Shown: positions 37,538-41,538, numbered from the stretch's first letter. The stretch: 64,000 nt of DNA from Bacteroidia bacterium (GCA_036399275.1 DASWNK010000148.1:1784-65783); one strand, 5' to 3'. Made by a program: numbers and translations. Notes: a model not told the origin generated them from the letters alone.

Positions 37538-37612
37538 GGGAGCTTAGCTCAGCTGGTTCAGAGCATCTGCCTTACAAGCAGAGGGTCACTGGTTCGAACC
37601 CAGTAGTTCCCA
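37538..37612 (+). tRNA. tRNA-Val (anticodon UAC)
   Basis: Folded by hand into a 75-nt cloverleaf. Acceptor GGGAGCT/AGTTCCC with one G-U pair. D arm GCTC/GAGC. Anticodon arm TCTGC-CTTACAA-GCAGA. T arm ACTGG-TTCGAAC-CCAGT. Discriminator A. CCA is not encoded. Confidence 0.93.
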
Positions 37613-37613
37613 C
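37591..37613 (+). repeat. attL core (within the tRNA-Val T arm/acceptor)
   Basis: GGTTCGAACCCAGTAGTTCCCAC, identical to 41516-41538. Confidence 0.9.
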
Positions 37614-37618
37614 CCAGA

Positions 37619-37649
37619 GGGTTTAACAGAAATGTTAAGCCCTTTTTTT
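37619..37649 (+). terminator. Hairpin plus T-run immediately after tRNA-Val (element-borne)
   Basis: GGGTTTAAC / GTTAAGCCC stem with one G-T pair, a 6-nt loop and T7. Confidence 0.7.
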
Positions 37650-37721
37650 ATTCCCGCCACTTTCCCGCTAAATACATTGATAAATAAGGGCTTTGCGCCT
37701 AATTGCTTGCATTAAAAAAGG

Positions 37722-37748
37722 GGTTCAGATAGGTTCAGGCGGGTTCAG
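37722..37748 (+). repeat. Three 10-bp phased GGTTCAG repeats (candidate recombinase/RDF binding sites)
   Basis: GGTTCAG at 37722, 37732 and 37742. They share GGTTC with the first bases of the att core. Confidence 0.85.
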
Positions 37749-37750
37749 CA

Positions 37751-37782
37751 TACGCACCCTTTACGCACCCAGTTACGCACCC
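37751..37782 (+). repeat. Three TACGCACCC repeats, 11-12 bp phase (candidate arm-type sites, left arm)
   Basis: TACGCACCC at 37751-37759, 37762-37770 and 37774-37782. Confidence 0.85.
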
Positions 37783-37809
37783 AAGAAATAAATTATAACT
37801 TTGTAGCCT

Positions 37810-38010
37810 ATGGCAGAGGAAACAAAACGCAAGGATGCACGCATCGAAACACCTCAACACAATGCAGAGGTATTGCTCTCTTTCGGGGGTTTGTATTACA
37901 TTGGGACTTATAATGTAGAGGCAAGGGGCTTTGAAACTCGTGAGGGAAACTTTTTTGTAGTCAATGACAAAGCACCCCCAATATTTTGGAGCGAACTACC
38001 TAAGGGCTAA
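37810..38010 (+). CDS. Hypothetical small protein (element-borne)
   Basis: 66-aa ORF with an ATG start. No recognisable family. Whether it is coding is uncertain. Confidence 0.35.
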   Translation: MAEETKRKDARIETPQHNAEVLLSFGGLYYIGTYNVEARGFETREGNFFVVNDKAPPIFWSELPKG

Positions 38011-38020
38011 AATTAACACC

Positions 38021-38121
38021 TCAAAAAAAACGCCTCCACCGCATTTCACTTGGGAAACGCACAAATGTTATGCACGCATAATAAATGGGCAATGTCAAAA
38101 AAACCACCTCCACCGCATTTC
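38021..38121 (+). repeat. 27-bp direct repeat x2 (25/27 identical), 74 bp apart
   Basis: TCAAAAAAAACGCCTCCACCGCATTTC (38021-38047) and TCAAAAAAACCACCTCCACCGCATTTC (38095-38121), in the non-coding gap downstream of terS. Confidence 0.88.
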
Positions 38122-38150
38122 GCTAAAGATTTGATTTTCTACATTTAGAA

Positions 38151-38216: not shown

Positions 38217-38609
38217 TTACCCCTTTCCATCGGTAGCAATGATCTTAATAATAACGGGTTCGCCTGTATTGTCGATCTTAGTAGTTACAAAGTACCCAAG
38301 CATTCTAATAACTGTATTCATTAAGGAGGCGTAAGCATTATAATTGCCTTTCCTGAGGGCGATCTCGCTTGTATCAATGAGTTCGGATATAATTCTCTCC
38401 TTAGTTATGTTGTATTTAAGGGCAAGTTCCTCTTTTTTCTTCTGTATTGCGTTGTTAATGTCAGTATTTGCAAGCAATTTAAAGCCGTTTGCCTTAGCCG
38501 TTGCATAGGTTGAACGTGGATAGGCGTGCAAATATGCTTGGGTTGCGTTGCTATGGGTTGCGTAATGCTCTGTAAATCGGTAATGAGCGGGTGTAAGTGT
38601 TGTTTTCAT
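38217..38609 (-). CDS. Phage terminase small subunit-like protein (Terminase_2-type HTH)
   Basis: 130 aa. The N-terminus LTPAHYRFTEHYATHSNATQAYLHAYPRSTYATAKANGFKLLANTDINNAI follows the TerS pattern LTxxxxxFxxxYxxxxNATQAxxxAGYSxxxAxxxxxxLLxxxxI. No large-terminase gene lies nearby. Confidence 0.65.
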   Translation of the reverse strand: MKTTLTPAHYRFTEHYATHSNATQAYLHAYPRSTYATAKANGFKLLANTDINNAIQKKKEELALKYNITKERIISELIDTSEIALRKGNYNAYASLMNTVIRMLGYFVTTKIDNTGEPVIIKIIATDGKG

Positions 38610-38635: not shown

Positions 38636-39556
38636 TCAATGGTGCCTGCCGGCACCATGATAACTTAATTTTTTAGAGTATAGAAAGCCCTTACGTGCGG
38701 AATGTTCATATACCCGCTCCATTGGCAGGCGTTCTATTGTTTTTTTTCTTTTTTTTATTTCTTCTTTCTCTCTCTCAATGGGTGCATTGGGCAAGTATGG
38801 CTTATAGACTTGTTGAGGGCTCTGTTTTTTTTCTTTATTAATTCTTTCGTTTACTTGCTGATCTATTAAAGCCCTGTAAGTATGCACCCTGTTTTGTTCC
38901 TGCAAGTTTTCGCCTCTTATAACACCCTCACGTTTCACCTCAGCATATAGTTTACCGCAATACAGTAGTTGAATAAGCGGGTAAAGGTTTGTTTCTGTTT
39001 TTTTTCTTTTATTCATTTCTTCTTTGGTTTGTTTACTATAAATATTTATAGAAATGCGTTTTTGGTAGTTGAGGGCAAAATTTTCTTTGCTTGCTGGCAG
39101 GGTGTTTCCAAGTTGCTTGCTTAAATAGCTATATATAAAGTCGCTTGTAACTTGTCGGGAAACAATGTGAATTGATCTACATCCCATTTGCTTTTTAATC
39201 TTGTTGAGGTGGTTTTTCTCCTTATAATATACGATCTCGCTTAATTGACTGAGGTAATCCTTTGCAATGAATAAGTGTATATGTAGCTCAGGCTCTAAAT
39301 TGAAATCTGCATATCCATTGTAATGAGTTAAGGAGCTGTTTTGTTCTAATACCAATATGTATGGGGGTTGCTCAGGTAATAAGTTGCTTATATAGGTGTT
39401 TGCCTCCTTAGCTGAGTATATGCGTGTCTTAGGTTGAATGGTAACGAACATCATATTTTGCCCATTGTCCCCAAACAAAGTGAGGTACTTGTTATAGAAA
39501 CTTTCAAGGGCTTCTTTCTTAGTTAGATATGAGGTTTTATAGGTGTTTGGTGGCAT
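38636..39556 (-). CDS. HUH-type rolling-circle replication initiator-like protein
   Basis: Three ordered motifs: FVTIQP (motif I-like), ELHIHLFIA (HUH, codons 39275-39283) and YSYLSKQ (YxxK, 39116-39127). Lys/Glu-rich C-terminal tail. ATG at 39556 preferred over the TTG at 39586. Confidence 0.5.
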   Translation of the reverse strand: MPPNTYKTSYLTKKEALESFYNKYLTLFGDNGQNMMFVTIQPKTRIYSAKEANTYISNLLPEQPPYILVLEQNSSLTHYNGYADFNLEPELHIHLFIAKDYLSQLSEIVYYKEKNHLNKIKKQMGCRSIHIVSRQVTSDFIYSYLSKQLGNTLPASKENFALNYQKRISINIYSKQTKEEMNKRKKTETNLYPLIQLLYCGKLYAEVKREGVIRGENLQEQNRVHTYRALIDQQVNERINKEKKQSPQQVYKPYLPNAPIEREKEEIKKRKKTIERLPMERVYEHSARKGFLYSKKLSYHGAGRHH

Positions 39557-39837
39557 TGGGCAAAAGTTCAACTTCCGTAAACTCAATGTTTACGCTGGTT
39601 TTAGCTGTTTTAAATGTTAGTAAAAAAATAGGGGCTCAAAGTATCTACACCTCAACCCCTCTTATCAACATCACTTTTCCTTTCGATCTCTAATAAATAG
39701 AGGAATAAAAGAATAGTATCGAATTTGACCTATCAAAACCAAATGAAAGTTGCAGTTTTTTGCCTGTAAAATTATAACTACTTGATTATGAGGTAGAATA
39801 AATTTTGTGCTTTTGTTGGGTGTGTATTTATTTTTTT

Positions 39838-40119
39838 ATGGGTCATCCCTATAAGCGGATGACAGACAAGAAACTCATCCAATTATTAAAGCAACAAAAT
39901 GCCGAACTCCTTAAGGCGTTGCAAAAGGAATTAGCCCCGCTCAGGAGAAAGAAATACTACACCTATAAAGAGGCAAGCGAGATATTATGTATTAGCGTGG
40001 AGGGCTTAAAAACACGATTGAAACGAGGCGAAATGTTTAAGGTGTGTAATAACGGGCGACCTCTGATCTCAGGGGTTGAGATTGACAGATATTTAAAATC
40101 ACAAAACCCAGGATTTTAA
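39838..40119 (+). CDS. Helix-turn-helix (excisionase/MerR-like HTH_17) DNA-binding protein
   Basis: The block YTYKEASEILCISVEGLKTRLKRGEM is typical of the small HTH proteins found beside Bacteroidota integrases. Transcribed divergently from rep. The start could be 39838 or 39859. Confidence 0.6.
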   Translation: MGHPYKRMTDKKLIQLLKQQNAELLKALQKELAPLRRKKYYTYKEASEILCISVEGLKTRLKRGEMFKVCNNGRPLISGVEIDRYLKSQNPGF

Positions 40120-40173: not shown

Positions 40174-41397
40174 TTATGCTATTTTCATATTGGAGAAAAC
40201 ATTTACAAGTTTCTCATCGACTTTACTTTGTTCTAAGTTTACATAGCGGGAAAACGATCTGTAATCGGAGTGCGTACTCATTTGCATTACCTCAGATATT
40301 GAAAGCCCCCCCTCCAATGAAATGGATATAAAACTTTTGCGTGCATCGTGTATCGAAATCAATTCGTGTACTGGTTTTTGTTCCTGTGTTTGATTGTTGA
40401 GGTGTTGAATAATAATCGTTTCCTCTCGATCAATTCCGCAAAGTTTAACCCCTGCTTTGATGTTCTTATTTAACTTTTGATTTGATATATCTAAAGGCAA
40501 TACATTGTTGTACTTAGCAAGTATCTGCACTGCCTCAGGAATTAATTTAATACGGAGCTCTGTATTAGTTTTGTGTGTGTTGATATGTAGGTACCCGTTC
40601 TTAATGTTGTGTTTATTTACCTGCATCAAATCGTTATAGCGTAAGCCAAGGAAGGTTGCGAAACAAAACACGTCCTTTGCCCTTTCAAGATTTGTTTTGT
40701 CTTTGAAATCAAAATGGAAATACTGGAATAGTTCGTTTTGATGTAGTGTTATAATACGTTGATCTGTTTCTTTAACACGTTTTATTTTCATCCAGTCAGT
40801 TGCTGAGGTGTGCTTATTGTCAAAAGCCCAACGACAAAACACTTTGAGTGTTACGATCATTTTGTTAATTGTTGGGTTTTGTAAATTCTTTGAGCCCTTA
40901 ACGTGTTTGCTTTTTGTGCTCAAAAACTTGGCGAACTTTTCCGCCCATTTCGGATTCATATCGGCAAATTGTGTAGAGGGGTTGAAATCTTGCAGGTGGT
41001 TTATAAGGGTTGTAAATGGCTTAAGTGCACCCTCTTTCAAAAATCCTGCTCTCTCTCCTTTGAATTGTTCTAATAAGGCGGTTAAGTCTTTCTTGCCACG
41101 TTCAACATTGATAGTGTTTACATTGGCTGTAATGAAATCTTTTGCCTCGCTAAGACTTGCAATGTCATTGGCTAACTTTACATTCGTCATATATTTTTCG
41201 AATGCACTTTGGTATTTATTCAGGTATAACTTAATATTGTCGTTTTTACTTCCTGCTTTTGGCTTGCCCTCTTTCCATTGGTTAATGACGATCTTTTGAC
41301 CTGTTGAAATAATTGCTTTTACTCCACGCTCTGAAAGTATCCCACGTATAGTTCCTTCCTTGTCGTTGATCTTTTTTAATTCAAAATAAAAGTGCAT
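40174..41397 (-). CDS. int: Tyrosine site-specific integrase (Bacteroidota phage-integrase family with N-terminal arm-binding/SAM-like domains)
   Basis: Catalytic residues are readable: R in LGLRYNDL, HxxR in IHDARKSF, and H...Y in HSDYRSFSRYV. Start set to ATG 41397 (MHFYFELKK) because the ORF-track extension translates the TACGCACCC repeats. Confidence 0.88.
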   Translation of the reverse strand: MHFYFELKKINDKEGTIRGILSERGVKAIISTGQKIVINQWKEGKPKAGSKNDNIKLYLNKYQSAFEKYMTNVKLANDIASLSEAKDFITANVNTINVERGKKDLTALLEQFKGERAGFLKEGALKPFTTLINHLQDFNPSTQFADMNPKWAEKFAKFLSTKSKHVKGSKNLQNPTINKMIVTLKVFCRWAFDNKHTSATDWMKIKRVKETDQRIITLHQNELFQYFHFDFKDKTNLERAKDVFCFATFLGLRYNDLMQVNKHNIKNGYLHINTHKTNTELRIKLIPEAVQILAKYNNVLPLDISNQKLNKNIKAGVKLCGIDREETIIIQHLNNQTQEQKPVHELISIHDARKSFISISLEGGLSISEVMQMSTHSDYRSFSRYVNLEQSKVDEKLVNVFSNMKIA

Positions 41398-41442
41398 CTT
41401 GTTGAGGTGTTTGGTTATGCAAATGTAATTCTTTTTATAAGA

Positions 41443-41463
41443 TACGCACCCAACTACGCACCC
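41443..41463 (+). repeat. Two TACGCACCC repeats, 12 bp phase (candidate arm-type sites, right arm / int promoter region)
   Basis: TACGCACCC at 41443-41451 and 41455-41463, in the same orientation as the left-arm copies. They lie 46-66 bp upstream of the int ATG (41397) and 53 bp from the attR core. Confidence 0.85.
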
Positions 41464-41515: not shown

Positions 41516-41538
41516 GGTTCGAACCCAGTAGTTCCCAC
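41516..41538 (+). repeat. attR core (orphan copy of the tRNA-Val 3' end)
   Basis: GGTTCGAACCCAGTAGTTCCCAC. No tRNA 5' half lies upstream; the flank is AAAA instead of CACT. Confidence 0.9.

Follow-up and report, generated by a model that had tools for sequence, protein, structure and literature searches.

The attP of phage lambda comprises the arm-type Int sites P1, P2 and P'1-3, the Xis sites X1, X1.5 and X2, and sites for IHF and Fis, and the arm-binding domains of both the lambda and the Tn916 integrases have a secondary-structure topology of three strands plus a helix. Among the elements of Bacteroidota, NBU1 reportedly targets the 3' end of a tRNA gene and has a small accessory protein, Orf2x. 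The logic of arm-type sites in lambda-type systems has been summarised (PMC2817482), together with that of attDOT, which carries five arm-type sites placed asymmetrically around the core, needs accessory proteins, and is bound at its arms by the IntDOT N-domain (PMC2817482). The sites of recombination directionality factors (RDFs) are typically direct repeats one helix turn apart (PMC7498355). In E. coli, the KplE1 (CPS-53) prophage has a tRNA-associated integrase, IntS, whose promoter is overlapped by arm-type sites; its winged-helix RDF, TorI, binds a block in which a short GTTCG-like motif is directly repeated three times at close spacing, and Int and RDF both repress int, a situation predicted to be general for tRNA-associated integrases (Panis et al. 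2010, PMC2951348). Finally, BldC, which is a developmental regulator and not an RDF, binds direct repeats as cooperative head-to-tail multimers (PMC5859096).

In the window considered here, that is, the whole stretch of 64,000 nucleotides that was analysed, a 3,948-bp element lies between two att copies and is inserted in a tRNA-Val gene. One of its arms carries two adjacent arrays of short direct repeats, GGTTCAG and the 9-mer TACGCACCC, and the other arm carries a further pair of the 9-mer upstream of the integrase gene (int). Judging from the comparison with related elements, these repeats are probably accessory attP arm sites, the 9-mers serving the integrase and the GGTTCAG triplet an 86-aa protein encoded by the element, with repression of int as a probable further consequence. 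The features of the locus are the following, the hairpin, the A-tract and the two -7-type boxes being read directly from the sequence:

37538..37614, + strand: tRNA-Val(TAC) gene found with ARAGORN, the integration target, its 3' end being the attL core
37591..37613, + strand: attL core, a 23-bp exact repeat covering the T-loop, the 3' T-stem and the 3' acceptor strand
37618..37650, + strand: hairpin plus T-run, supplied by the element directly after the restored tRNA 3' end
37714..37719, + strand: A-tract, abutting the GGTTCAG array on its core side
37722..37748, + strand: GGTTCAG x3, putative sites of the 86-aa winged-helix (Xis-like) protein, conserved in relatives
37751..37782, + strand: TACGCACCC x3, putative arm-type integrase sites of the int-distal arm, conserved as GGTGCGTA x2-4
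37796..37803, + strand: TAACTTTG, -7-box-like, 6 bp before the ATG of the 66-aa ORF
37810-38010: 66-aa ORF (orf66), without homologue in related loci
38217-38609: homologue of the small terminase TerS (PF03592, E=1.3e-11; PHROG 51)
38636-39586: 316-aa protein without any family match
39859..40119, + strand: gene of the small HTH protein, best read as 86 aa (HTH_17, E=0.0035, below the Pfam cut-off)
40174..41397, - strand: gene of the tyrosine integrase, 407 aa (PF13102 and PF00589)
41420..41427, - strand: TACATTTG, matching the TAnnTTTG -7 consensus, 23-30 nt upstream of the int ATG
41443..41463, + strand: TACGCACCC x2, putative arm-type sites for integrase in the int-proximal arm, covering the -33 region of the predicted int promoter
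41516..41538, + strand: attR core, a 23-bp exact repeat

Short ORFs are encoded in the element as well. The 23-bp att repeat, GGTTCGAACCCAGTAGTTCCCAC, occurs genome-wide just as attL and attR.

The arrangement resembles the attP of lambda in its heterobivalent tyrosine integrase (predicted in the window), in having arm sites on both sides of the core with three in tandem on one arm, in the head-to-tail RDF-type sites about one turn apart that stand between arm site and core on one arm only, and in a total attP length of a few hundred bp. However, no relationship exists between the site sequences, the int-distal arm accommodates both the three-site arm block and the RDF-type triplet, integration takes place at a tRNA 3' end, the predicted int promoter lies inside an arm, and an A-tract was seen but no IHF-type sites were identified. 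With KplE1, the element has in common a tRNA-associated integrase, a predicted int promoter overlapped by putative arm-type sites and a three-repeat RDF-type block; nevertheless, the RDF block of KplE1 stands beside the int promoter, whereas the triplet of the window is on the opposite arm and the predicted promoter is overlapped by putative Int sites only, and the two differ in phylum and promoter type. IntDOT and IntN1 are, like the integrase studied here, tyrosine integrases of Bacteroidota with N-terminal arm-binding (in the window, predicted), SAM-like core-binding and catalytic domains. The window integrase is nevertheless distant from those of CTnDOT and NBU1, with no direct PF17293 match and ~30% identity to the nearest PF17293-bearing homologues, while the site sequences are unrelated and the element is far smaller and without mobilisation genes. 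Structurally, the 86-aa protein is best matched by mycobacteriophage L5/Pukovnik Xis and Streptomyces BldC, both of which occupy a series of direct repeats in head-to-tail fashion and bend the DNA (for BldC, PMC5859096), but the window protein has an extra N-terminal helix of ~30 residues and shares only 11-14% identity with them. The novelty lies in the family, in its sites and in comparative support of unusual clarity, whereas the principle itself is textbook.

The arrays had been described in an earlier note on this DNA, and an exact search returned every coordinate given there for both motifs. GGTTCAG begins at 37722, 37732 and 37742, in exact 10-bp phase, and TACGCACCC occurs five times in the 64-kb window, always on the + strand (37751, 37762, 37774, 41443 and 41455). 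The first array starts 109 bp past the attL core, in keeping with the roughly 110 bp proposed, and the right-arm pair was likewise correctly placed: it occupies positions 46-66 bp upstream of the int start codon, the A of which is nucleotide 41397 on the - strand, and ends 53 bp before the attR core. The GGTTC common to GGTTCAG and the 23-bp core is also real and is located within the universally conserved T-loop sequence. As to the frequency of TACGCACCC, which the note had left to be counted, the 9-mer is not common: an exact search of the 2,817,900-bp assembly gives five copies, all inside the two element arms. Since a Markov-3 model expects ~4 scattered copies per assembly of this size, the signal consists in extreme clustering and not in a raised count; window shuffles give an expectation of 0.2 copies against the five observed. 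The GGTTCAG 7-mer is common by itself, with 343 copies genome-wide, but exact 10/10-bp triples are expected only ~1e-6 times genome-wide, and chance is excluded as the source of the arrays. Copies 2 and 3 of the left-arm TACGCACCC array and the right-arm pair show an extended similarity over 29 nt (86%). For the comparisons that follow, TACGCACC denotes the conserved core of TACGCACCC and is the reverse complement of GGTGCGTA, and TGAACC is the motif of the GGTTCAG triplet read in integrase orientation.

The integrase belongs to a tight and rare family, with some 30 proteins that are 54-70% identical and next homologues at ~30%. A scan of IMG/VR with the integrase alignment found no relatives, and a search of 401 same-class genomes at E<=1e-60 returned the window's own copy alone, so the family is rare in reference genomes. 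A total of 11 independent related elements or junctions from Bacteroidota were examined, their integrases being 54-70% identical, their targets tRNA-Val or tRNA-Met, and their sizes 4-76 kb:

L001: full element, tRNA-Met target with a different core, 4.5 kb
L003: full element, tRNA-Val, 6.9 kb
L009/L010/L011: full element (one and the same), 6.0 kb
L015: full element, 7.0 kb
L016: full element, 5.0 kb
L022: full element, tRNA-Val, 19.6 kb
L004/L026: full element, cores 76 kb apart
L002, L007 and L018/L019: junctions with a distal-type arm, the core and a proximal arm side by side
L008 and L017: proximal arm alone recovered

L005, L012 and L013 were left out, as their int copies are truncated or fragmented, and near the 48%-identical integrase gene of L021, which probably represents a decayed copy, there are neither arm sites nor att. 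Only two proteins of the window element, the integrase and the HTH protein, have homologues in the related loci, the other cargo being unrelated; these are the very two candidates that the earlier note had named as binders, and they are the sole proteins common to the related elements. The HTH gene adjoins int in most relatives, and the L004 genome has a single HTH homologue, which lies inside the 76-kb interval.

When the relatives are aligned in integrase orientation, with the first G of the core GTGGG taken as the zero point, the sites fall at the following positions:

+76/+88 (+/-1): proximal arm, GGTGCGTA x2, in 12/12 elements
+138 to +143: int ATG, in 12/12 elements
about -168/-156/-146 (+/-1): distal arm GGTGCGTA sites, in all distal arms, 2-4 copies
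-134/-124/-114: distal TGAACC-type x3, in 8/9 relatives, with L004 at -133/-123/-113

A fourth distal GGTGCGTA is found at -188 in L001, and just two are present in L009, L016 and L007. The triplet varies among relatives between TGAACC, CGAACC and TGAACT, and its spacing is exactly 10 bp in 10/10 of their distal arms. In every relative a T/A-tract follows the TGAACC sites, so that the order towards the core is TGAACC x3, T/A-tract, a ~60-bp spacer of low conservation, an A-run plus hairpin, and the core. Mean column identity over the eight ungapped distal arms amounts to 0.78 at the arm sites, 0.82 at the TGAACC sites and 0.81 at the core, with 0.61 in the ~60-bp spacer and 0.48 outside the arm. 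Departures from the standard distance are themselves regular: both distal arrays are shifted together by 12 bp in L007 and by 10 bp in L022, and these shifts correspond to a spacer shortened by about one helical turn. The layout is unchanged in L001 despite its tRNA-Met target and different core, and it persists across elements of 4 to 76 kb. Across the relatives, the repeated non-core sites of 12 proximal and 10 distal arms thus keep defined distances to the core, and since a looped recombination complex requires a fixed distance to the crossover, which an operator or an origin does not, this conservation fits a role in recombination. The reading that the earlier note had put forward, namely arm-type Int sites together with sites of a directionality factor, is therefore supported by comparison as far as the sites are concerned: both motifs recur in related elements, and their positions relative to the core stay fixed irrespective of cargo, even where another tRNA is the target. 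Both arrays are tandem direct repeats, so that array geometry alone assigns no protein to either motif.

With regard to the integrase, the catalytic and core-binding domains are recognised above cut-offs (PF00589, E=1.2e-8; PF13102, E=2.5e-10), and the protein matches PHROG 1 integrase with E=1.8e-21. Three domains make up the protein: catalytic, SAM-like core-binding and, at the N-terminus, one in which three strands form a sheet next to a helix. For residues 1-110, a confident AF2 model (pLDDT 87.7) has strands at 2-9, 14-23 and 26-37, forming an antiparallel sheet, and then a long helix, that is, the topology of the arm-binding domains of lambda and Tn916 Int. Residues 5 to 388 are colinear, at 30% identity, with P0034, a protein whose residues 9-84 match PF17293 (Arm-DNA-bind_5) with E=3.4e-9. 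A Pfam scan of the window integrase itself gave no direct match to an arm-binding domain, a Foldseek search of the PDB with the N-domain model gave no significant match, and an hhalign comparison of the N-domain with a single PF17293-bearing N-terminus was weak (E 0.0018, probability 15%). Searches of PDB sequences with the profiles of the HTH protein and of the Int N-domain returned nothing meaningful.

The 86-aa protein is basic, with a pI of 9.8, and its AF2 model (pLDDT 85) shows an N-terminal helix, a helix-turn-helix and a beta-hairpin wing. Its best Foldseek matches in the PDB are BldC-DNA complexes and the Xis of mycobacteriophage Pukovnik, all with probability 1.0, target TM of 0.70-0.75 and rmsd of 1.5-2.5 A, and with E only 0.05-0.1; NCBIfam gave sub-threshold, sigma-factor-like matches only. 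The protein is proposed to be the recombination directionality factor of the element. A different reader of the triplet can be imagined, although this seems unlikely: the triplet would be an accessory recombination site, either core-like and read by the core-binding and catalytic domains of the integrase, or bound by a host architectural protein in concert with the A-tract, and the HTH protein would act elsewhere, for instance as a transcription regulator. A core-like nature is suggested by the resemblance of TGAACC to the core end TCGAACC, one copy being literally CGAACC in L001, L003, L007 and L015, and a host factor by the conserved T/A-tract that follows, while the motif stays unchanged across hosts and across HTH proteins that are only 43% identical. 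However, every triplet-bearing element also encodes an HTH homologue, the HTH fold best matches Xis and BldC, and head-to-tail triplets at exact one-turn spacing, located on the core side of an arm site, are the hallmark of RDFs of the winged-helix type (PMC7498355, PMC2951348). Moreover, the proximal core half-site varies strongly among relatives (TTCTAACC, TTCACACC, TTTGAATG and AGTGAACC), whereas the triplet is better conserved.

Further information on the assignment comes from elements in which the arm motif itself differs. In L022, whose integrase is 54% identical to that of the window, the proximal arm bears GGGGGCGTA x2 and the distal arm GGGGGCGTA x3, with the distal spacings of 12 and 11 bp found in the window, and the triplet is retained as xGAACT/TGAACC/TGAACC; an int-less remnant upstream of it, with the same core, keeps GGTGCGTA x3 in its distal arm. 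In L002, where the arm motif is altered by a 1-bp insertion, the rare variant GGTGGCGTA stands on both sides of the core. The 8-9-mer thus changes in concert on both arms and independently of the triplet, which implies one element-encoded reader of the 9-mer and a distinct reader of the triplet. Compared with the GGTGCGTA class, the Int N-domain of L002 showed unique substitutions in strands 1 and 3 (F5Y, E6D, G25A and S31Y) and at K45, and the DNA-binding region of its HTH protein (residues 33-70) contained no substitution unseen in the GGTGCGTA class. The Int changes of L022/L018 are F5Y, A28M, I29K and K45Y, but their HTH protein has diverged as well, so that L022 does not discriminate between the two readers. 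The co-variation, resting on two variant elements, is therefore suggestive of a tie between the arm motif and the Int N-domain.

The reverse assignment, in which the HTH protein would occupy TACGCACCC on both arms, repressing int and a left-end promoter, and the Int N-domain would occupy GGTTCAG, is improbable. It draws on the fact that BldC/Xis-like proteins bind tandem direct repeats, as the 9-mers are at 11-12 bp, and that, in the window element, each 9-mer array is closely followed downstream by a -7-like box, and the doubly diverged L022 is neutral towards it. Against it, the altered arm motif of L002 goes with changed strands of the Int N-domain and with HTH residues 33-70 free of unique change; heterobivalent integrases characteristically have arm-type sites on both arms and RDF sites on one (PMC2817482; the lambda part is established knowledge); and the left-end promoter and its ORF are not conserved, whereas the distance to the core is. 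Within the window, TAACTTTG may belong to an inward promoter with which the distal arm sites overlap, but this -7-like sequence is not conserved in relatives. Finally, that the repeats should be operators of two inward end promoters, iterons or a pac site, without a role in recombination, is scarcely credible: both arrays do abut promoter-like boxes in the window, and the element carries a TerS homologue and a possible Rep, but the conserved feature is the base-pair distance to the crossover core, whole-turn indels included, and the Rep-like, TerS and orf66 genes are missing from relatives in which the arrays persist, which is why iterons, a pac site and cargo operators were rejected.

If the 9-mers are integrase arm sites and the triplet belongs to the 86-aa protein, as we prefer to assume, excision would join the right arm, the core and the left arm into one attP of ~340 bp. 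The Int N-domains would hold the 2+3 TACGCACCC sites (two int-proximal, three distal) while the core-binding and catalytic domains hold the core, and integrase protomers would bridge arms to core to form the intasome. Between the distal arm sites and the core, the 86-aa protein would coat the GGTTCAG triplet head-to-tail, and this winged-helix protein, together with the A-tract at 37714..37719, which may be an intrinsic bend or a host-factor site, would introduce a bend into the distal arm, thereby favouring the excisive complex and setting directionality in the manner of lambda Xis, L5/Pukovnik Xis, Apl and TorI. Protein-to-motif assignment, bending, directionality and autoregulation are what we infer from the conserved sites and predicted folds described above. 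As to the crossover, the int-proximal copy of the core differs from the tRNA copy solely at the T-loop end in five elements (L003, L007, L009, L002 and L018), and the exchange therefore probably takes place in the acceptor/T-stem part. Among the low-depth (~7x) contigs of the single sequencing run containing this DNA, neither attP/attB joints nor circles were seen.

Integrase bound at the proximal sites would, in addition, limit the expression of int. The -7 consensus of Bacteroidota promoters is TAnnTTTG, and this sequence or a one-base variant of it is present at -26 to -32 from the ATG in 12/12 relatives, 12-16 bp downstream of the promoter-proximal right-arm site; in the window, the consensus-predicted box is 15 bp from the nearer arm site. 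The conservation of such a box beside the right-arm sites makes their overlap with the int promoter region plausible, and since both of these sites would cover the -33 region of the predicted promoter, their occupancy by integrase probably represses int as well. This would be analogous to the tRNA-associated integrases, such as IntS of KplE1, for which negative autoregulation via att-overlapping promoters has been documented (PMC2951348).

The outcome is a base-pair-resolved, comparison-backed map of a complete attP in a family of integrative elements of Bacteroidota that is uncharacterised so far. It shows the core, the terminator hairpin, the fixed spacer, the A-tract, the three sites of RDF type and the 2+3 arm sites. 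The cargo of this family ranges from a 3.9-kb TerS-bearing candidate phage satellite and elements of 4-7 kb to an apparent defence island of 19.6 kb and a region of ~76 kb. With such a map, it becomes possible to test how heterobivalent integrases work beyond the small number of Bacteroides model elements, whether Int regulates itself from a promoter of the Bacteroidota type, and whether arm-site variants confer orthogonal specificity. From a practical point of view, a vector for integration at tRNA-Val in environmental Bacteroidota could be built from int and ~340 bp of attP.

A more speculative idea, to which we give rather little weight, is that arm-site specificity has diversified (GGTGCGTA, GGGGGCGTA and GGTGGCGTA) and that this insulates tandem co-resident elements at one tRNA-Val core. 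In L018/L022, a putative defence island of the GGGGGCGTA class adjoins a GGTGCGTA-class remnant at one shared core. Were the idea true, several elements could occupy one tRNA-Val core in tandem without cross-excision or mis-pairing of arms, the arm motif and the Int N-domain would constitute a fast-evolving 'address code' insulating co-resident islands, and the rigid layout, with whole-helical-turn changes as the only ones observed, would offer portable orthogonal integration modules for Bacteroidota.

Some further observations concern the individual elements. The hairpin plus T-run at 37618..37650 is probably the terminator of the tRNA gene. In the column alignment, about half of the relatives retain the sequence next to its loop, AACAGAAATGTT, and its inner stem/loop (AACATTTCTGTTAA or GACATTTCTGTCAA in integrase orientation) is nearly identical in the window, L001, L002, L004/L026, L009, L016 and L018 although the surrounding spacer has diverged. 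The hairpin may have a role beyond termination, for instance as a host-factor site. The TerS homologue and the 316-aa protein have no counterpart in the related elements, and the satellite-like cargo is therefore element-specific and not a feature of the integration-module family. In the gap downstream of the TerS-like gene, two 30-nt direct repeats (38021-38050 and 38095-38124) are 90% identical and 74 bp apart. The sequence ACACCTCAAC, with at most one mismatch, occurs 11 times in the 64-kb window, and seven of these copies fall within the 3.9-kb element, on both strands (37849, 38016, 39203, 39647, 40396, 40802 and 41401). One of them is the int leader just before the ATG, and a 20-nt near-copy of this leader, ATG included, is found at 37847-37866 (+), forming the inverted repeat I6. 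The enrichment of ACACCTCAAC was rejected as a family feature, as the related elements are not enriched.

Among the relatives, the 19.6-kb tRNA-Val island at L022:243-19883 (also represented by L018/L019/L020) has the same module of int, HTH gene and arms. It encodes an MmeI-type restriction-modification enzyme, a helicase, T5orf172, a pair of SMODS/CD-NTase and Cap15, SLFN/AlbA_2, a reverse transcriptase and a TPR-SpoIIE protein, and with such cargo it looks like a defence island. The int-less remnant directly upstream of it, sharing one common core, contains a DNA methylase, an HTH_3 gene and a truncated small HTH gene. In L004/L026 (G401:C1:103785-179973), 76 kb separate the two exact cores; int stands next to one of them and a standard distal arm next to the other, and the HTH homologue lies in mid-interval, at ~137 kb. 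This region could be one very large element, or else tandem insertions that form a composite. Two short metagenome/MAG contigs, L002:826-1138 and L007:415-710, display distal arm, hairpin, core, proximal arm and int in an attP-like order, and represent either excised circles assembled as linear contigs or tandem copies, a terminal overlap not being seen in the L002 contig. Finally, in L009:5740-5860 and L016:7740-7860 a second, partial core, GTGGGAGCTACAG, lies upstream of the int-proximal core and is followed by unrelated sequence and, in L016, also by a duplicated terminator hairpin, and these partial cores look like scars of earlier integrations at the same tRNA-Val.
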